Origin: a virus | IMG/VR virus record: IMGVR_UViG_3300003322_000573 | Span: 1 to 41,333 of that record | Strand: one strand, 5' to 3' | DNA: 41,333 bases | In this document: piece by piece, positions 3,010 to 39,626 of the stretch | Layout of the letters: each line of letters opens with the position of its first letter | Numbering within the stretch: the first letter of the stretch is position 1 | Notes under the pieces: model-generated | The model's input: only the letters and a program-made list of their open reading frames with translations | Told to the model about the DNA's origin: nothing | Database searches by the model: none | Program-made: the position numbers and the translations under genes

Positions 3010-5360
3010 TGAAGCTGACGCTTACGCAGATATGCAAGGACGAGCTTAAAAACCTTGAGCGGCTTTACCCGCTCGTTAAAGATTATATTGACGAATGGAT
3101 TGTGGTGGTGCCGCCAAAAGACAAGGCAATTCCATTTTTAAAGGGCAAAGCGACCGTCATAGAGCAGGATTTTACGCAGCCAATTGAACCAGAAATACGG
3201 GACGAGATGAAGCTTTACGGCCTTGAAGTTGACAAAGACTACAGACTGTTTAACTTCGCCAGCGCACGTAACGCTGCCCTACAGGCTGCTACCGGTGACT
3301 ATGTGCTGTGGCTAGATGCTGACGACGAGCCGCTTGGCATGGAAAACCTGAAACTGTTCATACAAAAGAACCCACAGGCTGACGTATTCGATGCCGTATA
3401 TGACTATTTCAGGGATGAGGAAGGTAACCCGATTTCCGACCATGTGCGAGAAAGGATTATTGCTAACAATGGAAGATTTGAGTGGAAAGGCGGCGCCCTT
3501 GGCCTTATTCATGAGACGCTTTTGCCTAAATATGAGATTTATGAACCGCTACGGGTTGACATGCCGGACGTAATTTTCCGGGTAAGGCATCATACTGATC
3601 ATGTAAATGAATCTTCGCTTCGTAACCACGCGGCGCTTCTTTACGAGTACTTGAAAACCGATGGAGAAGACGCCCGCACGACATATTACCTAGGTATTGA
3701 GTACTTTAACCGCGGTATGTATGACTACTGCATTAAGGTACTGCAAGAGTACGTAAAAGTAAGCGGTTGGGACGAAGAGAAATACATGGCTTACGTGAAG
3801 ATGGGGGAAGCGTACCACATGTTAGGCGACTTTGAATCTGGACGTAATATGTACCTGACTGGCACGAAGGAAATGCCGCACTACCCGCATGCGTACCTTG
3901 GGATTGGCGAATCGTACTTTGAAGAGGAGAAATGGGCTAAGGCGATTGAATTTACTATGACTGGGTTACAGAAGAAGCTTCCCGCTACGAAGTATGTTGT
4001 TGATAAAACTCGTTTTACGTTCCGCCCTGCTGGATACATTGCGCTTTCGTACATGCAGCTTGGAAAACAAAACGAAGCATACGAATGGTTTATGCGTGCA
4101 GCTAAAATGAACCCGAAGCACCCGTGGATTAAACAGTACGCCCCAATTTTCCAGGAAGCGAAAGACCTTGACGACTATGTACGAAGCTTTGTAAAGCTGG
4201 GGCAACTGTCGCAGCGGCTTTACCCGAAGACGCTTTCCAAGTTAGCCGAAGCCGTGCCTGATGAGCTGATGGATCAGGAGCTGCTAATGGACTTTAAGTG
4301 GCGTTATTCTCGGCCTAAGGTATGGGAAGACAATTCGGTCGTGTTCTTTTGTTCGAGCGCGTTTGAGGACTGGGGGCCTGAATCATTGGAAAAAGGGTGC
4401 GGCGGGAGCGAAGAAGCGGTTATACAGCTTTCTAAGCGTCTTGTGGAGAGAGGATGGGACGTCACCGTATATAACAACTGCGTAAAAGAACGGACGGTAG
4501 ACGGCGTGAAGTGGATGCGTTTCGAACGGTTTAACCCGAGGGACGTATTTAATATTCTGATCGGCTGGAGAAACAACCCGTTTGTAGAGCCAAAGGTCGC
4601 TTCGAAAAAGTTCATTGATATGCACGATGTGCCGTCGATGCTTGCCTACTACCAGGAAGATACCCTGAAAGACGTAAAGCTTTTCGTAAAAAGCGAGTAC
4701 CACAAGAGCTTATTCCCAGGACTGGGAGAGGAAAAGTTCGCTATTATTCCAAACGGGATTGACCAGAACCAGTTTGAAAAAACAGACAAAGTGAAAAATA
4801 ACCTGGTATGGACAAGTAGTTATGACCGTGGGCTCGAGTACCTACTTGAGATGTGGCCGGATGTGAAAAAAGAAGTGCCAGATGCGACGTTAGATGTTTA
4901 CTACGGCTTTAACCTGTTTGATTCGACCCCTTGGGGCAAAAGACCAGAGGGACAGGCGTGGAAAGCGAAGATGGAACGCCTGCTTGGGCAGGGCGGCGTA
5001 ACTGACCATGGACGCGTAGGTACGGACGAAGTGGCAAAGGCATACTCGAGAGCTGACGTATGGGCATACCCTACTGATTTCCCAGAAATTGACTGTATTA
5101 CGGCTACTAAGGCCATGGCTGCGGGATGCGTACCGATTGCAACTGATTATGCGGTTATGAAAGAACGAAACCAGGGCGTAGTAGTAGCAGGAAGCGCATC
5201 TGACCCAGAGGTGAGAGAGGTGTTTAAGAAGGAGCTGATATCGCTTCTGCAAGACGATGAGCGAAAAGAAGAGATTAGAAAAAAACTAAATGTAAGCAAT
5301 TACTCTTGGGATAGCATTGCTGACCAATGGGATAAGGAGTTTCGATGGAATACGGACTGA
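3009..5360 (+). CDS. Three-domain glycosyltransferase: GT2-like N-terminus, TPR repeats, GT1/GT4-like C-terminus (783 aa)
   Basis: N-terminus: FASARNAALQAATGDYVLWLDADDEP (GT-A fold with DxD). Middle: TPR-like repeats (YYLGIEYFNRGMYDYCIKVLQEY, YVKMGEAYHMLGDFESGRNMY, AYLGIGESYFEEEKWAKAIEF). C-terminus: GGSEEAVIQLSKRLVERGWDVTVY and EIDCITATKAMAAGCVPIATDY (GT-B, group-1 type). Confidence 0.8.
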   Translation: MKLTLTQICKDELKNLERLYPLVKDYIDEWIVVVPPKDKAIPFLKGKATVIEQDFTQPIEPEIRDEMKLYGLEVDKDYRLFNFASARNAALQAATGDYVLWLDADDEPLGMENLKLFIQKNPQADVFDAVYDYFRDEEGNPISDHVRERIIANNGRFEWKGGALGLIHETLLPKYEIYEPLRVDMPDVIFRVRHHTDHVNESSLRNHAALLYEYLKTDGEDARTTYYLGIEYFNRGMYDYCIKVLQEYVKVSGWDEEKYMAYVKMGEAYHMLGDFESGRNMYLTGTKEMPHYPHAYLGIGESYFEEEKWAKAIEFTMTGLQKKLPATKYVVDKTRFTFRPAGYIALSYMQLGKQNEAYEWFMRAAKMNPKHPWIKQYAPIFQEAKDLDDYVRSFVKLGQLSQRLYPKTLSKLAEAVPDELMDQELLMDFKWRYSRPKVWEDNSVVFFCSSAFEDWGPESLEKGCGGSEEAVIQLSKRLVERGWDVTVYNNCVKERTVDGVKWMRFERFNPRDVFNILIGWRNNPFVEPKVASKKFIDMHDVPSMLAYYQEDTLKDVKLFVKSEYHKSLFPGLGEEKFAIIPNGIDQNQFEKTDKVKNNLVWTSSYDRGLEYLLEMWPDVKKEVPDATLDVYYGFNLFDSTPWGKRPEGQAWKAKMERLLGQGGVTDHGRVGTDEVAKAYSRADVWAYPTDFPEIDCITATKAMAAGCVPIATDYAVMKERNQGVVVAGSASDPEVREVFKKELISLLQDDERKEEIRKKLNVSNYSWDSIADQWDKEFRWNTD

Positions 5361-22173: not shown

Positions 22174-23142
22174 GTGATTCCGAAAACACTCAATAAACAT
22201 ACCATCCCCACAATGGTGCGTGGAAACGTAAAAAGAGACACGGTTATACTTGGCGAATTACTGCTGCTTTATTTGATTGACTTACGGGACGAAGACGCTG
22301 CCGTGCATACGATTAGAAACAGAGGGTATACGCTCAGGAATTTTATAGGATATCTTCAAGATAATCACGTCTATGCCATTGATGAGCTGGAAAAATACCA
22401 TATAAAGGAATACTTGGCCTTACAAGCCCAAAAGGGCGCAAGGATGACAACCTTAAACACGGTGAGAAGGTTCATAAAGTGGTTTTTGTTATGGGTCATG
22501 GACGAACGGGTTTCGTTGTTTAATTTTGACCCGAGAGGCGTGAAAGAACTAAAGGATAAAAGCGAGGGGGACATGAATTTCGATCCTCTCACTCCCGAGA
22601 CCGTGTACAAAGTGATTGCTTCCATGACGAACGAGCAGGACAGGCTTATGACCGCCCTGATATATGAGGGAGGCCTGAGGATTAGCGAACTCGTTGGGCT
22701 GAAGGTCGAAAGGATAAACCATGACGAATTACGGGTATATGGAAAAGGAGACAAGATGCGTCCTGTTTACATTCCTGACGACTTGGCTACCCATCTGCAG
22801 AGATACATAAAAACAGCCGGATACACGAGCGGTTACGTTTTCAGGCCTGATCCACGCTTCAGTCCACAGGAATGTTACTCGATCGACACGGTACGGCAGC
22901 GTATTAAAAGATGGTTCGATGCTGCTGGGGTAGATATGTGGGTTCACCTTTTAAGGCATTCCTTCGCTATTGGCATGGTACAAAGAGGGGCGGATATTCG
23001 TAGCGTTCAGATGATGCTAGGGCACTCGGACATTAACACGACCAGACGGTACTTAAAATTCAGCGACGTATTTATTAGAGAGCAGCGTAGGAAATACCAT
23101 CACAACAAACCGATACGCATTGTGGAAAACTTGACGACGTAA
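22174..23142 (+). CDS. int: Tyrosine recombinase / phage integrase (322 aa, GTG start)
   Basis: GGLRISELVGL (Arg I), HLLRHSFAIGMVQRGADIRSVQMMLGHSDINTTRRYL (H-x-x-R, His, catalytic Tyr). N-terminal SAM-like core-binding region. Confidence 0.9.
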   Translation: MIPKTLNKHTIPTMVRGNVKRDTVILGELLLLYLIDLRDEDAAVHTIRNRGYTLRNFIGYLQDNHVYAIDELEKYHIKEYLALQAQKGARMTTLNTVRRFIKWFLLWVMDERVSLFNFDPRGVKELKDKSEGDMNFDPLTPETVYKVIASMTNEQDRLMTALIYEGGLRISELVGLKVERINHDELRVYGKGDKMRPVYIPDDLATHLQRYIKTAGYTSGYVFRPDPRFSPQECYSIDTVRQRIKRWFDAAGVDMWVHLLRHSFAIGMVQRGADIRSVQMMLGHSDINTTRRYLKFSDVFIREQRRKYHHNKPIRIVENLTT

Positions 23143-23147
23143 GCGCA

Positions 23148-23176
23148 TTGACAAGCCGCTTAATGTCTGCTAGTAT
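23148..23176 (+). promoter_or_regulatory. Sigma-70-type promoter: TTGACA-17 nt-TAGTAT
   Basis: Perfect -35 at 23148-53, 6 nt after the int stop; -10 (TANNNT) at 23171-76. AAGCCGCTTA lies in the spacer. Points toward the tRNA fragment (antisense) and the 1.4-kb non-coding block. Confidence 0.55.
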
Positions 23177-23250
23177 AAGAACATACGAAACGGAAATAAT
23201 CCGTTCAGTCGAAACGATGACAATCTTACAAGGCCACGGCCGCAAGTAAC

Positions 23251-23299
23251 CGTCTCCGGTTTTGGAGACCGGTGCTCTAGCCACCTGAGCTACACTCCT
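23251..23299 (-). tRNA. Truncated tRNA-Trp(CCA): 5' acceptor strand, D-arm, anticodon arm and variable-loop start only
   Basis: The minus strand reads AGGAGTG-TA-GCTC-AGGTGGCTA-GAGC-A-CCGGT-CTCCAAA-ACCGG-AGACG. U8, A14, G18G19, U33 and A37 are all in place, and the anticodon arm is identical to E. coli tRNA-Trp (from memory). No T-arm or 3' acceptor strand follows. Confidence 0.7.
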
Positions 23300-23310
23300 A
23301 TATAGGAAAG

Positions 23311-23339
23311 ATTATATCATATCGTTTGATAATTCGGCA
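23311..23339 (-). promoter_or_regulatory. Extended -10 promoter (TGATATAAT) driving the tRNA fragment
   Basis: TGaTATAAT on the minus strand at 23319-23311, with a weak -35 (TGCCGA) at 17 nt. The tRNA 5' end lies 11 nt after the -10. Confidence 0.55.
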
Positions 23340-24727
23340 GTTAAAACAGTGACAATATGGGGTCATTGGAATAGTCGAATAATTGAATCGAGATTCATGC
23401 ATCCCTGTCTTGTTACTGATGGGGATTTTTCTTATCCTAGGCTCAAACGGCAATTTGTACCTAGGTAGGAAAAATCCCACCATTATCATATTCATGTAGG
23501 TACATGGCGGTACAAGGATTGGGAGATTTCTTGTACCGCTTAACCTAAGTTACATCCATTACTGGATATACAAGTAAACGGTAACTATAAGAAAACAAAA
23601 TCGTTAGCCAACGGGAGACGGTGAAGGCTCCTTACGAAAGTAAGATACTCCCTCTTATGTAGCCTACCAGAAGTAAGATCCATCAACCTAGTGATTGATG
23701 GTTAATTAGTCCGCACAGTGGTAAGACTAGGGCACGCCACCTTACTTCACTTGTATATTCAAACTGGCCATATAAGTAGTGTGGACTTCTATATCCCCTC
23801 GCCACGCGAAGCCTGTATTCGCGGCTTATATGGCTTGCCAGTAGTAAGTGGCGGGGTCTAATTGTACAGACACGGCCGCTTCAACGAGCTTTAAACTCGC
23901 CGAGATGCGAGGCAGGGAAACTGTGAGAAGTTTTCGACAGCGGCTTACTTCTGGCACCAGTAATGGATGTAACGAATGTTATAGAGCAGCAGTGAGGGAA
24001 CGGCTAATGTTTACACGCGAGGAGCCTTGCGGTGACTAGGCGGCAAGTGGCCATTGGATGATACAACCAAATAAAAAAACTACTCATTAGCCAACCGCCC
24101 CTCTCTCATGTTCTATAACACGTTAAGCGTAGTAGTGCTGGAAATGAACAATGTTATGTCATGACCGATAGACATAGGCACACAAAGGATCGGATCTGAG
24201 GTGTCTTCCCCTCATCAGGCAAGCTAGTAAAGACCTGATGAGTGCACGGAGCATCATTTCTAGCACCATATGCTTAACACCTCACATAGCAAGGTGAATC
24301 GGTAAGTGCGAACCAGCGAGTCCCCGTAAGGGTGGAATGAAACATCTGGGTAAATCTGAGGATGCTATCTAGGCTTAGCGGCCGACGTTAATCAGTGAAT
24401 CGTATTATCCGCGATAGCTGCCCTGCTGAAATGATGACGACCTTTCATCGGGTCTAGGCAGGTAAGAAGCGGAGCAAGCCATACTTACCTTATCGGTTCA
24501 TCCTGCTATGTGAATAGATACCAGGTTTTAGAACATACCAATGCTAGCAGTAACCGAAACGGCGAAAGCAATTCTGCAGCACAGCGAGTAACTAAGGCAT
24601 AGACGTTACTGCTAGCTTCGTGTGTTCTAAATTCCATGCACCTACATGAATAGTTGGCGGGTATGCGAGGCCCGCCAACGTTGAGAGTGGTGTTGGCGCC
24701 AGGTGATGCCCACCCTTACCTGGCGCT
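23340..24727 (+). ncRNA. Candidate giant (~1.4 kb) structured non-coding RNA or structured leader
   Basis: ORF-free in all frames. More than 12 long helices, including 10-13 bp perfect stems, nested multi-tier domains, GNRA tetraloops on the + strand and one pseudoknot candidate (details in findings). The strand assignment is tentative. Confidence 0.55.
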
Positions 24728-24781
24728 ATCTCTGCTCTTGAATGTATGTAAAAACAAGTAACTCGCCGGAAGGAGTGAAGT

Positions 24782-25051
24782 ATGAAAGTAGATAACGTTA
24801 TGCAACAGGCCGAAGAGGCATTGGATTACTGGGAAAGTGGTTCGATGTGGGCGCGTCTTATTGAGCGTGACATAAACGACAACGACATGGAGGCACTGCA
24901 GTTCCATGTAGATGAAGCAAACGCCCAAAAAAACCTGCAGGAAAGCTTTACACATGATTTTATTGACCGGCTGATAGATGGGGAAGACATTTCTTTTAAC
25001 ACGGATAACTGGCCAGTAGTGCAGATGCCTAAAGGAGTTGGCCGTGAGTAG
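24782..25051 (+). CDS. Hypothetical early protein (89 aa)
   Basis: CCGGAAGGAG RBS 7 nt upstream. First gene of the rightward early operon. Confidence 0.7.
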   Translation: MKVDNVMQQAEEALDYWESGSMWARLIERDINDNDMEALQFHVDEANAQKNLQESFTHDFIDRLIDGEDISFNTDNWPVVQMPKGVGRE

Positions 25052-34492: not shown

Positions 34493-34523
34493 AAAAGGCT
34501 CCTTATTTACGAGGAGCCTTTTT
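34493..34523. terminator. Bidirectional intrinsic terminator between convergent operons
   Basis: AAAAGGCTCCT (34493-503) pairs with AGGAGCCTTTT (34512-22). The A-run and T-run allow it to function on both strands. Confidence 0.75.
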
Positions 34524-34722
34524 ACGTGTCTTGTGAGCCTGATTTAGGATACTCGCCACGCGGAGCGTTCCGCCAATTACCACGTTTTTTCATTTCTGCT
34601 TGGACTACCTTATATAACTTGGAGTGCGGGCCCATCTTAGATAAAGCCACGCGCAGCTCTTCCCAGGAACGTATATTCCAGCCGCGCTCGTCTTTAGGAT
34701 CGTATTTCTTGCTATTATCCAT
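34522..34722 (-). CDS. Hypothetical basic protein (66 aa)
   Basis: GAGGG RBS before the internal ATG (34722). The ORF-track start (34776) is probably over-extended. Confidence 0.55.
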   Translation of the reverse strand: MDNSKKYDPKDERGWNIRSWEELRVALSKMGPHSKLYKVVQAEMKKRGNWRNAPRGEYPKSGSQDT

Positions 34723-34852
34723 TATCAAGCCCTCACGAAAGCCGGAAGACGATCGTAAGGGCGTGGCAAGGGACAATTACACGTAACTCCCATGGTAACA
34801 GAGAAAGGACGCCACGTCAATGCAGCGTCCCACCATACATATCATTATTAAG

Positions 34853-35137
34853 CTACCACCAGTTATGTACCAGCCAAAAAGCTTTTGCCTTCTCCCACGT
34901 CCCATACCTGTTTGTCATGTAATTGGTGAACCAGGCATCTTGGCAGGCATAATCTTGCAAAGAACAAGGAAGTTTGCTGCAAGGCAATGCTTGGCCTAAG
35001 CCACAAGCACCAGAACTTCGATTCACCGCATCAGTCCTGTTTCCTGATTCATGCATATAAATGAACGACTTAGCCTCCGCCTCGTTATTCTTACGTGGAG
35101 TGTACGATTCCGCAATAGGCAGTATCGTTGGTACCAA
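34853..35137 (-). CDS. Cell-wall-associated small domain (Apf/IsaA-like, 94+ aa) lacking its own ATG, RBS and signal peptide
   Basis: EAKSFIYMHESGNRTDAVNRSSGACGLGQ...NRYGTWEKAKAFWLVHNWW resembles, from memory, the C-terminal domain of aggregation-promoting-factor / transglycosylase-like secreted proteins of Gram-positives. The only possible start is TTG, and the frame is open upstream to 35230. Confidence 0.55.
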   Translation of the reverse strand: MVPTILPIAESYTPRKNNEAEAKSFIYMHESGNRTDAVNRSSGACGLGQALPCSKLPCSLQDYACQDAWFTNYMTNRYGTWEKAKAFWLVHNWW

Positions 35138-35211
35138 TTCAACCTTTGGCTTTACCTGCGCTAAATTAAGCGCCTTGTACGTTGTATTATCGTTACCGTT
35201 TGGTAGCTTTG

Positions 35212-35403
35212 CTATTTTAAACGTTCGAACTTAGCCGCAACGGCAGAATCAATCTTAGCATTTACGTCAGAGCGCAGCATCCATCCGCTCGAAACACCAA
35301 GCATAAAGATAGTTACGATAAGTATGATAGCCCACGGCAACTTAGCTGATTTGTACCATTTGGTTGTTAAGGTTTGTGGCCTGAAGCCTTCTATTTTTTT
35401 CAT
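35212..35403 (-). CDS. Small N-terminally anchored membrane protein (63 aa)
   Basis: ACCGGAAGGGG RBS. TM segment LPWAIILIVTIFMLGVSSGWML. Ends ...CGT TTA AAA TAG. Confidence 0.6.
   Translation of the reverse strand: MKKIEGFRPQTLTTKWYKSAKLPWAIILIVTIFMLGVSSGWMLRSDVNAKIDSAVAAKFERLK
35215..35221 (-). promoter_or_regulatory. Candidate -1 programmed frameshift heptamer U_UUA_AAA
   Basis: An X_XXY_YYZ heptamer in the zero frame of 35212-35403, immediately before its TAG. The -1 frame continues into the Apf-like domain. Confidence 0.45.
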
Positions 35404-35495
35404 AATATTCCCCTTCCGGTAGGAATTAGCTTTATATTTTTGGATAATGATACCCCCTGAACACCTCACAAGGCGCTCCAGGCGTAGCGTTACTT

Positions 35496-35690
35496 TTACT
35501 GAGCCCCGACCAGCCTACCGCTTGAGTGGTTGTAAAACGCCACAACATACTCGGCCTGACTCCTTTTATCATGCGCGTATATAGCATATCCAGCAGGAGT
35601 TACCTTGATAGAGTATGTATACTTTTTAGGATTACAACCCATTTCCTTATGGAAAAATAGGGCTTGCTTTAACACTTCTTGTTTACTCAT
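35496..35690 (-). CDS. Hypothetical protein (64 aa)
   Basis: GCCGGAAGGAGGAG RBS. The ATG follows an in-frame GTG. Confidence 0.6.
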   Translation of the reverse strand: MSKQEVLKQALFFHKEMGCNPKKYTYSIKVTPAGYAIYAHDKRSQAEYVVAFYNHSSGRLVGAQ

Positions 35691-35723
35691 CACTCTCCTC
35701 CTTCCGGCGAGGACTGCTCGTTT

Positions 35724-35882
35724 TTACCTAATATGTACTTCGTCTACCGAATTGATAGTGATCTCACACACAAGCTTATGAGAGTATGGAGATTGTACCA
35801 CATCGTCGCAGACTGGTTTGCTGCTTGCCGACAGTGCGAACCATACTACGATGATTATGACCAGCGCCATCCATATTTTCAT
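35724..35882 (-). CDS. Small secreted or membrane protein (52 aa, MKIWMALVIIIVVWFALSASS...)
   Basis: CACCGGAAGGAG RBS. Signal-peptide-like N-terminus. Below the ORF-track cut-off. The + strand ORF 35679-35990 covering it is rejected. Confidence 0.5.
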   Translation of the reverse strand: MKIWMALVIIIVVWFALSASSKPVCDDVVQSPYSHKLVCEITINSVDEVHIR

Positions 35883-36190
35883 TTCTTGCTCCTTCCGGTG
35901 AGCTTTAATATTTATCCACGAGCCACGAGACAGCCCCTAAGTAGTCCGCCTTGTTGCAACAAAACTTGGTTTTTCACCGTCAAAGTATAAATACTTATCG
36001 ACACTGTTGGCCGTCTAGCAGCCCGTGGATATTATCGTGTACCGTCAAGGCTTGGACTGGCTGTTGGCGATTTTGATTCAAGATAGACTTCGTAACTATC
36101 GAGCCAGTCTTTGCCTGGACAAGCCCGATTGAGTAAGAGTGAACGTCGTCAGATGCTTCCGGTCATCTTGCTTCGTTCGAGCTTATTTAC

Positions 36191-37579: not shown

Positions 37580-38292
37580 GTACCGTTTCTAAGCCGTACA
37601 CGTTCTCTCCTAACACTACCGCTTCCTCGTCTGAAGTGAATGCTAACTTCAATACGATATATAACGACTATAACGGGAATATCAATTCGTCTAACTTGGC
37701 AACTGGAGCGGTGAGTACTGCTAAAATTGCTGATGATGCAGTAACGAGTGACAAAATAGCAGACGCTGCGGTAACGTCTTCACAGATTAACTTCGGAGGC
37801 TCTGGAGCAGGGGTATGGTGGGAAGAGATTGGCAGAACAACACTAGCTAGCGCCGGAGACACTATTTCAGTTACTAGTTTACCTGCGAGGAAGTACTTGA
37901 AAATCCAAGTCTCAACTGGCTCTACAGGCGGGACTACGAACAACTTCATGCGCTTCAATAACGATAGCGGAAGCAACTACGCAGAACGCTATGTGGAAGA
38001 TGGCACGTCCTCGACTCTGGTGTCACAAACCGCGATTCTTCTAGCTGGCGCGACTATTACGGCCGACGCTTACATCGAAGCCTATATATTGAACGTCACC
38101 TCGAAAGAAAAGCAAGTCATATATCAGGGGTCGAGGTATGTAACCGGTGCAGCCAACGCCCCAAGCGGCAGTAAAGTTGCTTGGGGTAAATGGTCAAATA
38201 CAAGTGTTCAAATCAATCGTATTGATGTTGTCAATACAGGTACTGGTGACTTTGGTGCCGGGTCTCAAATAGTAGTACTTGGTCACGACTAA
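37576..38292 (+). CDS. Tail-fibre-like protein (238 aa, GTG start)
   Basis: N-terminus PYTFSPNTTASSSEVNANFNTIYNDYNGNINSSNLATGAVSTAKIADDAVTSDKIADAAVTSSQI is the typical conserved N-terminal pattern of short tail fibres. Confidence 0.55.
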   Translation: MSTVSKPYTFSPNTTASSSEVNANFNTIYNDYNGNINSSNLATGAVSTAKIADDAVTSDKIADAAVTSSQINFGGSGAGVWWEEIGRTTLASAGDTISVTSLPARKYLKIQVSTGSTGGTTNNFMRFNNDSGSNYAERYVEDGTSSTLVSQTAILLAGATITADAYIEAYILNVTSKEKQVIYQGSRYVTGAANAPSGSKVAWGKWSNTSVQINRIDVVNTGTGDFGAGSQIVVLGHD

Positions 38293-39626
38293 TGAAAACG
38301 CTTAATACAATAAAACGTAGCAAGGATGTCGTCCTTGATTTTAACCCTCATGCAGGGCAGGAAGAGATAGCCGATGCGCTATTGACCCACAGGTACGTCG
38401 TTGTGCGGGCAGGGAGGCGGTTTGGTAAATCATCCTTAGCCTTAAATCTCGTATTCAGGGAAGCGCTGAATAACCCTGGGAGGTACTGGATTGTCGCCCC
38501 GGAATACAAGCAGGCGAAGTCCATTTACTGGCGGGATTTGGTAGACGAATTCATTCCTAAGGAACTGATCGTAAAGAAGAACGACAATGAGCTCATTTTG
38601 GAAATAACTTCCCTTGTAGAAGGCAAGAACTCCATTATTGAGTTCAAGGGAAGTGATAACGAGAACTCCCTGCGTGGTGCCGGGCTTATGGGCGTGGTAC
38701 TGGACGAGTTTGCCTTTCAGAAGGAACACGTGTGGGAGAAAATCCTTGGCCCGACCCTCGTGCAGACGAATGGCTGGGCAATGTTTATTACGACCCCGAA
38801 CGGCGTAGCTAATCACTTCAAGAAATTCTGGGATACCGCGGTAGCGCTGGAAGCTGACGGGGATAGTGATTGGAAGACGTTCCATTTTACGAGTTACGAC
38901 AATCCCCTCATTCCGAAAGAGAACCTTGACAAGGAGCGTGAGAAGCTCGTTCCTGAGTTCTTTGAACAGGAATACATGGCGGAATTTGCCAAGTTCGTCG
39001 GGCTTATTTATACGGGCTTTGACGAAAACGTGCACGTGCAGAACTTTGACATTGACGAGAACTGGACGTTTTTCCGTTCGATTGACTTTGGGGCGGTTGA
39101 CCCGAACGCCGTTTCTTTCATAGGAGTGGACAGGAACGGGGTTATCCATATTTTTGACGAGCTTTACATAAATGACATTTACACCTCCGAATTGGCCGAG
39201 CTGATAAAGCAGAAGTCCGCCCACAGGTACTTCGTAGCGACGTATGCTGATTCTGCCGCGAAGCAGTCGATTATTGACCTTGGCACGTACGGTGTTTTCT
39301 GTACTCCGGTGAAGAAAAACCAGGCGGCGAAGGAAACGGGTAGCAGGAATTGGATAATCGCCGGTATAGACAGGGTACACCAGTTACTGCGGGATAGGAA
39401 AATCATCGTGCATCCGAGGTGCAAGGCGACCATTAAGGAATTCATGTCGTATTCGTGGCGGAAAGACCGGATGGGCGAAGCGGTAAACCTGCCAGAAGAC
39501 AAGAATAACCATATCATGGACGAAGTCCGTTACTTCGTGATGATGTACCAGGCCGGTCAGTACGCGGAAGAGGAGCAGTTCAACTACCTTGGAAAGGGAA
39601 TCGTCGACCCGATAGTCGGCTATTAA
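38292..39626 (+). CDS. terL: Terminase large subunit (444 aa)
   Basis: Walker A VVRAGRRFGKSS and Walker B GVVLDEFAF. C-terminal nuclease-type acidic residues (IDFGAVDPN, ATYADSA, HIMDEVRY). Confidence 0.9.
   Translation: MKTLNTIKRSKDVVLDFNPHAGQEEIADALLTHRYVVVRAGRRFGKSSLALNLVFREALNNPGRYWIVAPEYKQAKSIYWRDLVDEFIPKELIVKKNDNELILEITSLVEGKNSIIEFKGSDNENSLRGAGLMGVVLDEFAFQKEHVWEKILGPTLVQTNGWAMFITTPNGVANHFKKFWDTAVALEADGDSDWKTFHFTSYDNPLIPKENLDKEREKLVPEFFEQEYMAEFAKFVGLIYTGFDENVHVQNFDIDENWTFFRSIDFGAVDPNAVSFIGVDRNGVIHIFDELYINDIYTSELAELIKQKSAHRYFVATYADSAAKQSIIDLGTYGVFCTPVKKNQAAKETGSRNWIIAGIDRVHQLLRDRKIIVHPRCKATIKEFMSYSWRKDRMGEAVNLPEDKNNHIMDEVRYFVMMYQAGQYAEEEQFNYLGKGIVDPIVGY

Follow-up and report, generated by a model that had tools for sequence, protein, structure and literature searches.

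A predicted modular RNA insert in the early-operon leader of a temperate phage

Leader-encoded immunity and antitermination RNAs are known from several temperate phages, among them P4 CI, P1/P7 C4 and HK022 put. The P4 CI and P1/P7 C4 RNAs arise by cleavage of the early leader and regulate early transcription where the phage has no protein repressor at that step, and Rfam holds C4 families. Hairpins in early phage RNA can also serve as RNase III processing signals, as in T7 and SP82, and stalks of the same kind flank the 16S and 23S rRNAs. Large structured phage RNAs are few. Two of them, GOLLD and ROOL, are phage-borne, free of open reading frames (ORFs), hundreds of nucleotides long and built of many helices, lie near tRNA sequence and in some cases carry tRNA-like inserts (PMC12286853). 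Here we describe a helix-dense, gene-free region between the integrase gene and the early genes of IMG/VR record IMGVR_UViG_3300003322_000573. The window analyzed is an entire Joint Genome Institute metagenome contig of 41,333 bp, which we take from its gene content to be the genome of a temperate tailed phage, and all coordinates without a contig name refer to it.

We tentatively read the gene-free region as the 5' leader of the early operon, the largest share of which would be an optional, self-contained RNA domain. Like GOLLD and ROOL, this insert is phage-borne, ORF-free, helix-rich, close to tRNA sequence and at times equipped with tRNA-like inserts. GOLLD and ROOL differ in having pseudoknotted cores, a fold of about 580 nt in the case of ROOL, and a location in tRNA islands, whereas the insert consists of long plain stems in an early leader beside an attP site and varies between close relatives from complete absence to 1.4 kb. 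The original prediction for this locus, made by reading the sequence, had noted a resemblance to the GOLLD/ROOL class without assigning a family; kinship with either found no support in a search with the 4227 models of Rfam 15, run on the whole window at gathering score and on positions 23000-24900 at E values up to 10 with lax filters. The GOLLD and ROOL covariance models matched nowhere in the window, in 23000-24900 or in the homologous loci, and no Rfam match in the window was obtained for HEARO, OLE, raiA, group I/II introns, RNase P, tmRNA or C4 antisense RNA. The search of 23000-24900 returned just a sub-threshold minus-strand tRNA match and chance microRNA-type matches, and the homologous loci gave no family besides tRNA. 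The insert appears to be a strand-specific RNA structure that matches no catalogued family.

The optional leader insert and its relatives

No ORF in any frame of 23143-24781 exceeds 65 amino acids, in agreement with the claim that about 1.6 kb lacks a credible ORF. The further claim that the region is non-coding and unusually rich in helices was also upheld against controls. Relative to dinucleotide shuffles, the plus-strand fold z-score was -8.9 for 23340-24327 and -10.1 for 24100-24790; for the 1169-nt core it reached -13.6 on the plus strand and -10.9 on the minus strand, compared with -1.4 to -3.7 in two coding controls of equal length. The core contains nine exact inverted repeats of at least 10 nt, against a mean of 0.77 and a maximum of 3 in 64 other 1169-nt tiles of the window. 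Among the helices listed in the original prediction under the letters a to k, we recovered a, b, the inner part of c, d, e, g, i, j and k in the best fold or as exact inverted repeats, whereas f (23875-80/23939-44) and the stand-alone CCC-GUAA-GGG hairpin, h, lay outside the best fold.

The region had been proposed to form a single unit of about 1.4 kb, but comparison with related phages divides it into three separable parts: 23143-23483, with the attP site, a promoter, a terminator and hairpin a; 23484-24652, which is present or absent as a whole; and 24653-24781, with hairpins j and k and the ribosome-binding site. Relatives were found through the nuclease encoded in the early region, and their contigs (L numbers) were then compared at the leader locus. 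In L011, L015 and L258, hairpin a runs straight on into j and k, without the central ~1.17 kb. A region homologous to that of the window is present in L012 (with L013 as a partial copy) and in L016, and in it blocks of 20-50 nt at ~100% identity alternate with diverged, indel-rich stretches, and this in phages whose nuclease next to the region is only 68-73% identical. The conserved blocks are stem arms that pair with each other, while the interiors are wholly different between phages. Overall, the insert measures 255 nt in L260, 707 nt in L014, 873 nt in L012, 1129 nt in L017 (where the sequence is mostly different and the style the same) and 1394 nt in L016. Its position is fixed between the conserved early-leader hairpins, a on one side and j and k on the other, and no target-site duplication was seen. 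These comparisons indicate that 23484-24652 is an optional insert in the early-operon leader. They were anchored on the conserved blocks because insertions and differences in module order made a global MAFFT alignment of the four full elements unusable.

A terminal helix, P1, closes the insert in all cases. It spans 19 bp in the window, 18 in L016, 20 in L017, 17 in L014 and 16 in L260, with differing sequences and complementarity kept. Its inner end is AACUGG/CCAGUU in L016, L017, L014 and L260 and ACAUGG/CCAUG in the window.

Outside this group, IMG/VR scans with two of the conserved blocks (B and D) gave no matches, GenBank phages gave no DNA match to the region besides tRNA-Trp, and ten IMG/VR contigs with a nuclease 48-57% identical (L001-L010) had no nucleotide similarity to it. 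Three of these (L008 4784-6000, L005 4827-5982 and L009 3354-4570; nuclease 48-54% identical) have ORF-poor gaps of about 1.2 kb directly upstream of the nuclease; the gaps show no richness in inverted repeats and no sequence that the window also has, and L004/L008 and L005/L006 mutually share patches of 67-77% identity.

Hairpin modules and motifs shared with other loci

The 1164-nt insert, a string of five or six modules, is closed by the 19-bp helix P1 (23489-23507 pairing with 24634-24652, with one A·C), within which hairpin b (23507-23539, 10-12 bp) and five modules, M1 to M5, follow one another on the plus strand with linkers of 1-13 nt. Each module has a long (10-26 bp), near-perfect basal stem that is conserved in sequence and a variable interior. 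M1 (23549-23973) is closed by 23549-65/23957-73 (17 bp) and 23566-75/23749-58 and holds helix e (23766-77/23824-35) as well as, at 23836-23956, a sub-module of the GCYRGNAGUAA...CYRGCACC type. M2 (23977-24120) has a 12-bp base, 23977-88/24109-20, followed by 23994-98/24099-103 and 24002-09/24085-92. M3 (24122-24278) consists of an outer helix GUUAAGCGUA/UAUGCUUAAC, an internal loop GUA/CA and an inner helix GUGCUGGAAAUGA/UCAUUUCUAGCAC around a variable interior. M4 (24282-24513) is closed by a 25-bp helix, 24282-24306/24489-24513, with three G·U and one A·C, and M5 (24526-24632; 12 + 12 bp, GCUAGCAGUAAC/GUUACUGCUAGC) is a diverged relative of the M3-type base. P1, the two closing helices of M1 and the 12-bp and 25-bp helices at the base of M2 and M4 are the strongest helices of the region; all are long-range, and none had been listed in the original prediction.

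The test proposed with that prediction, whether homologues maintain the helices through compensatory changes, came out in its favor for P1, the 17-bp helix of M1, helix e and M3. Perfect pairing of the M1 helix is kept through three double changes in L016 and one in L012, and a C-G pair of helix e is G-C in L017. The M3 base, GUUAAGCGUA/UAUGCUUAAC in the window, is GGUAUGUGGGUAUGGUGCU/AGCACCAUACCCACAUACC in L017, where it lies within a helix of 26-27 bp. In M2, the pair 23986/24111 is G·U in the window and A-U in L012 and L016, and the closing helix of M4 is perfectly Watson-Crick in L016. Complementary 11-mers repeat within the insert and make alternative pairings possible: 23667-77 can pair with 23741-48 or 23944-54, and L017 has three copies of CUGGUAGUAAG. 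A candidate kissing contact between 24326-35 and the loop of hairpin k was rejected, as it is not conserved in relatives.

Some module interiors in relatives and other phages look tRNA-like or contain a small ORF. Within M4 of L012, 902-999 reaches 32 bits with the Rfam tRNA model, whose gathering score is 29, while ARAGORN is silent; a module interior of L323 (~3965-4107) has a T-arm and a weak tRNA-Sec match, again without an ARAGORN call; the interior of an L331 module starts with a Shine-Dalgarno (SD) sequence and an ATG; and a 115-aa ORF is called within M2 of L016 (2243-2590).

We define the M3-type base as an outer helix UUAAGCGUA/UACGCUUAA, a loop GUA/CA, and an inner 13-bp helix GUGCUGGUAGUAA/UURCUACUAGCAC that includes a G·U pair, together enclosing an interior that varies. 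Window positions 24122-24278 fit this definition in full, and their inner helix is compensated (GGAAAUGA/UCAUUUCU). The 16-mer AGCGTAGTAGTGCTGG, which forms the M3 5' arm, is present in 42 IMG/VR contigs, and at 32 of 43 such sites its partner CTAGCACC, with one mismatch allowed, lies 57-300 nt downstream. We aligned 30 distinct sequences, comprising 26 filtered and deduplicated IMG/VR examples together with the window, L012, L016 and L260, and obtained the consensus uUAAGCGUA-GUA-GUGCUGGUAGUAA ... UUGCUACUAGCAC-CA-UACGCUUAa. Like the set for hairpin k described below, this set was collected by sequence patterns that fix part of the motif. Paired cells make up 98.4% of the alignment compared with 90.5% in shuffles, and two-sided changes occur at 10 pairs (51 cells), which none of 500 shuffles reached. 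One pair is G·U in 28 of the 30 sequences and another is U·G in 17, with A·C in just 3 cells, and the outer helix extends past the fixed core with sequences that differ and remain complementary. A covariance model of the M3 base, R1, scored L260 at 61 bits on the plus strand versus 31 on the minus strand and found M5 of the window on the plus strand only (29.7 bits, E 4.5e-5). R1 did not re-list the window's own M3, a member of its training set, presumably because the interior of this copy is long. The strong covariation and the conserved G·U pair indicate that the M3 motif probably works as plus-strand RNA.

The surroundings of the motif differ from phage to phage. An ORF starts 13-80 nt past the M3 3' arm in 18 of 27 distinct cases, usually with an SD sequence; the gene families are diverse, and a common downstream gene was looked for and not found. 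Motif searches located up to two module starts in ORF-free regions of 0.7-1.4 kb in other M3-bearing phages. Rfam gave no match in 17 M3-bearing loci and ARAGORN called no M3 module a tRNA in the 27 loci scanned; on the ARAGORN result, we rejected a tRNA or tmRNA identity for the modules. The idea that the GCACCA tail is an RNase P substrate was dropped because its CA sits in the internal loop and its flanks pair. Solitary M3 copies (L297-L337; for example L333 1325-1390, L310 and L332) have a conserved ACAUU(A/G)ACAAUUA on their 5' side, and several of the genes downstream of such copies encode small single-pass membrane proteins. No upstream pairing partner was found for ACAUUAACAA, which lies 5' of solitary modules, and its reading as a promoter was rejected for a misfit in sigma-70 spacing.

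The two hairpins to the right of the insert also recur elsewhere. Hairpin j (24653-24679, plus strand) has a 10-bp stem and the loop AUGCGAG. Hairpins with this loop on unrelated stems were found in L011, L012, L016, L017, L014 and L260, in the last two of which they lie within P1, and in the unrelated IMG/VR loci L267 (~5986), L270, L306 and L334. With j beside k, the layout is like that of two-hairpin antiterminator (put-like) elements.

Hairpin k (24695-24727, plus strand) fits its definition as an invariant AGGUGAUGCCCACCCUUACCU (a 21-nt loop region) within a variable, covarying stem, and has no U-run here. Its 19-nt core AGGTGATGCCCACCCTTAC occurs exactly in metagenome and genome contigs, at least 120 of each, and in 35 IMG/VR viral contigs. 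In an alignment of 46 sequences, pairing of the stem amounts to 97.4% and double changes are seen in 133 cells, a result that 0 of 500 shuffles reached. The 35 viral contigs (L262-L296) combine the invariant loop with unrelated stems in many contexts, where k often lies a few bases after a -10-like box at the transcript start, with or without a U-run. Among the genome matches listed, nearly all records that name an organism are Candidatus Saccharibacteria, and since hairpin k recurs in these genomes, the phage host is probably a Saccharibacteria bacterium.

In Saccharibacteria, k is the terminator hairpin of a stand-alone RNA gene of about 300 nt with a TTGACA/TATAAT promoter and a U-run, as at L029 11815-12125, where the gene is divergent from dprA-topA. 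The gene has strongly conserved motifs such as GCAUACUAACCCCUUUAACCGGCGG and GGGUGGGUUGAAGGGU (L018-L257 generally), and hairpin k is all that the host RNA and the phage have in common. The host RNA had no Rfam 15 match even at E values up to 10, its identity as a tmRNA or tRNA was rejected on negative ARAGORN results, and our literature search found no Saccharibacteria non-coding RNA (ncRNA) or phage RNA of this kind. Together, these recurrences show that the modules and flanking hairpins (M3-type base, AUGCGAG-loop j, and k) are portable RNA motifs common to phages. The analysis brings out these three as uncatalogued RNA motifs, along with an RNA gene that is widespread in Saccharibacteria. 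A 1.2-kb modular structure with natural deletion and expansion variants also offers a ready series for dissection, and its probable source is the phages of a lineage with ultra-small genomes, an uncultured majority and an RNA biology that is almost unexplored.

Strand, nucleic acid and rival explanations

Several lines of evidence show the plus strand to be under selection as a single-stranded nucleic acid. Over all homologues, the long inverted repeats contain 14 G·T mismatches against 4 A·C mismatches, compared with 5 to 5 in control tiles; counted as independent events, the ratio is about 11 to 3 (one-sided binomial p ~0.03). This bias, the conserved G·U of M3, the strand-asymmetric scores of the covariance model and the co-orientation of the insert with hairpin k and the early genes all favor the plus strand, which was the orientation originally proposed. 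The GNRA loops cited at the time as strand evidence were not enriched and proved uninformative. Because the insert occupies a 5'-untranslated position, RNA is the natural reading, and a folded single-stranded-DNA role for the plus strand is possible.

Several observations weigh against a plus-strand RNA. The fold z-scores fail to separate the strands, the minus strand being as good or better in three of four homologues, and the best folds of the two contain G·U pairs in similar total number. The long stems are near-perfectly Watson-Crick, with 1 G·T in 579 positions under a strict criterion, which is unusual for classical structured RNAs and also fits inverted repeats at the DNA level, and the ~100% sequence conservation of both arms exceeds what pairing alone explains. 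The patterns with which the covariation sets were gathered themselves fix parts of the motifs. Finally, a single promoter match underlies the predicted transcription of the insert, which would also have to pass the conserved terminator t1 by read-through.

A very long cis-acting leader of the early operon, offered in the original prediction as an alternative, fits the anatomy best. By analogy with known processing signals, we lean, without great confidence, toward a modular, cis-transcribed leader RNA of processing-stalk-like hairpins. The insert would be co-transcribed with the early operon from the promoter at 23148, reading through t1, and the module bases would be the stalks that an RNase III-type, double-strand-specific endoribonuclease recognizes and cuts. 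Cleavage could trim the leader, stabilize the upstream pieces and free the ribosome-binding site, and it could release the variable interiors as separate small RNAs, some of which in relatives are tRNA-like or carry a small ORF. Hairpin k might recruit or titrate a host factor bound by the same hairpin on the host RNA. In geometry, with some 22 bp, an asymmetric loop and a ribosome-binding site downstream, the M3 base would be compatible with RNase III-type stalks. Like the stalks of T7, SP82 and rRNA, the M3 base has a lower stem, a small asymmetric internal loop and an upper stem, about 22 bp in all; in both cases similar sequence is reused within and across phages, often just upstream of a ribosome-binding site, and can enclose variable content. 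The placement of the M3 3' arm before an SD sequence and ATG is the position of T7-type processing signals. The modules differ from those stalks in that their sequence is unrelated, their interiors run from 30 to more than 270 nt and several are chained inside one outer helix. The dispensability of the domain and its rapid change in size suggest an accessory role, as a regulator or a carrier of cargo, rather than that of an essential core RNA. A bolder version, which we regard as possible and on balance doubtful, is a new class of giant modular RNA in phages of probable Saccharibacteria (candidate phyla radiation, CPR) hosts: an outer helix with conserved stalks that would present or release variable cargo RNAs, tRNA-like pieces included, flanked by hairpin k as a mimic of the 3' hairpin of the ~300-nt host RNA that captures this RNA's host factor.

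The size of the P1-closed domain (1.16 kb), its phage origin, its lack of ORFs, its extreme fold z-scores and a closing helix that joins its 5' and 3' ends could instead point to a stand-alone giant ncRNA with one defined architecture, possibly multimeric, acting in trans, as GOLLD and ROOL may do, and separately from the early mRNA. Three phages have identical core blocks, long coaxial helices could act as struts, and the tRNA-like insert of L012 parallels the tRNAs in GOLLD linkers (PMC12286853). We nevertheless consider this unlikely: no Rfam family matches, close relatives have anywhere between 0 and 1394 nt of the domain, and in L017 and L260 the modules differ in content and order. Its conserved parts are nearly all simple helix arms rather than junctions or pseudoknots, it lacks a terminator of its own and sits between leader hairpins that exist without it, and the candidate pairing of the k loop with 24326-35 is not conserved. 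The single giant RNA first envisaged, with its one conserved fold, gives way here to separable hairpin modules. The insert region also resembles P4 CI, C4 and put in being, if transcribed, an early-leader RNA of a temperate phage that has a constitutive promoter and its terminator on one side and the early genes on the other, with hairpins j and k side by side as in HK022 put, and it could be the precursor of small immunity RNAs cut from the early leader. No repressor or helix-turn-helix protein was recognized among ~30 ORFs scanned, a strong promoter followed by a conserved terminator precedes the early genes, the repeated 11-mers permit alternative pairings, and long stems would suit processing. 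This we judge improbable, as immunity cannot depend on the insert when the temperate relatives L015 and L258 lack it and keep integrase, promoter, terminator and hairpins; moreover, no Rfam family, and hence no C4 model, matches the region, and no target repeats or sites were found in the early genes.

An explanation at the DNA level would make the insert a set of inverted-repeat elements resembling miniature inverted-repeat transposable elements (MITEs), invertible or shufflon-like segments of the neighboring tyrosine recombinase, or folded single-stranded-DNA sites of recombination or replication. As in MITEs, invertons and shufflons, the interiors are variable and bounded by conserved, near-perfect Watson-Crick inverted repeats; sites with and without the insert exist among close relatives; and the region adjoins attP and the tyrosine recombinase gene. 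The fold z-scores are equally strong on both strands, and in L261 an HNH endonuclease gene (3415-3807) occupies the same gap. We hold this for very improbable. One G·U pair in the M3 arms persists in 28 of the 30 sequences, with G·U far commoner than A·C, covariance-model scores differ by strand, and the flanks past the conserved core are covarying inverted complements and not direct target-site duplications. No interior in opposite orientation was found among the homologues, whose nhmmer and BLAST matches are collinear on the plus strand (self-complementary arms excepted), and the insert has no direct flanking repeats; no transposase or reverse transcriptase was recognized in the ORFs scanned. 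Hairpins j and k, interleaved with the modules, have conserved loops, and k is the terminator of a host RNA gene. A replication origin, another of the early suggestions, finds no footing either: the region has no iterons or tandem repeats, just weak two-copy direct repeats, and no AT-rich stretch, its G+C content of 0.43-0.48 is like that of the genome remainder, and no replication initiator was recognized in the same ORF scan.

The left flank and gene context

Upstream of the insert, the near-consensus promoter noted at 23148-23176 was confirmed as a sigma-70-like match on the plus strand (TTGACA-17-TAGTAT, extended -10 TG, 10 of 12 positions) directly after the integrase stop codon, the sole such match ahead of the early genes. 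In L015, a relative that lacks the insert, the corresponding site (2932-2960) matches at 11 of 12 positions. The intrinsic terminator t1 (23401-23435, plus strand; 9-bp stem and U-run) is conserved in the relatives examined, with a covarying stem (AUCCC/GGGAU versus ACCCC/GGGGU). Hairpin a (23419-23483, plus strand), whose 5' arm overlaps the 3' arm and U-run of t1, is part of the minimum-energy fold, and alignments show it kept in relatives with and without the insert. Promoter 23148 and t1 would together give a plus-strand RNA of about 250 nt (23148-23435), antisense to a tRNA-Trp fragment.

This fragment (23256-23300, minus strand) is the 5' half of a tRNA-Trp, with acceptor strand, D arm and an anticodon arm with CCA. 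It is 91% identical to phage tRNA-Trp genes, about 45 nt of it are common to GenBank phages, and it underlies the sub-threshold Rfam tRNA match (27.6 bits, 23209-23299); ARAGORN called no tRNA or tmRNA gene at the fragment or in the gap region. Because L260, a related prophage locus, has a complete tRNA-Trp and host-like genes next to it, we interpret the fragment as the attP core and not a functional tRNA, and the link to a tRNA island drawn in the original prediction falls away. The phage carries the 5' part of the tRNA and not the usual 3' part. A promoter-like site on the minus strand (23316-23344, 9 of 12 positions) is directed at the fragment and would be a candidate promoter for the tRNA-Trp rebuilt on integration, replacing the tRNA gene's own. 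Integration at the attP core would part promoter 23148 from the early operon, which makes a lysogeny switch possible.

The tyrosine integrase gene (Pfam Phage_integrase) lies at 22174-23142. On the other side of the insert, genes for a PD-(D/E)XK nuclease and a VRR-NUC protein come after the first early gene (24782-25051, 89 aa), which has its SD sequence GGAAGGAG and ATG at 24768-24784 on the plus strand, and the early region also encodes a protein like single-stranded-DNA-binding protein (SSB) and a methyltransferase. The large terminase is at 38292-39626, and the lysin is of the SH3_5 type. The genome is oriented on the plus strand apart from a short minus-strand gene cluster at 34500-36000, where the GC skew reverses and a transglycosylase-like ORF lies at 34853-35137.

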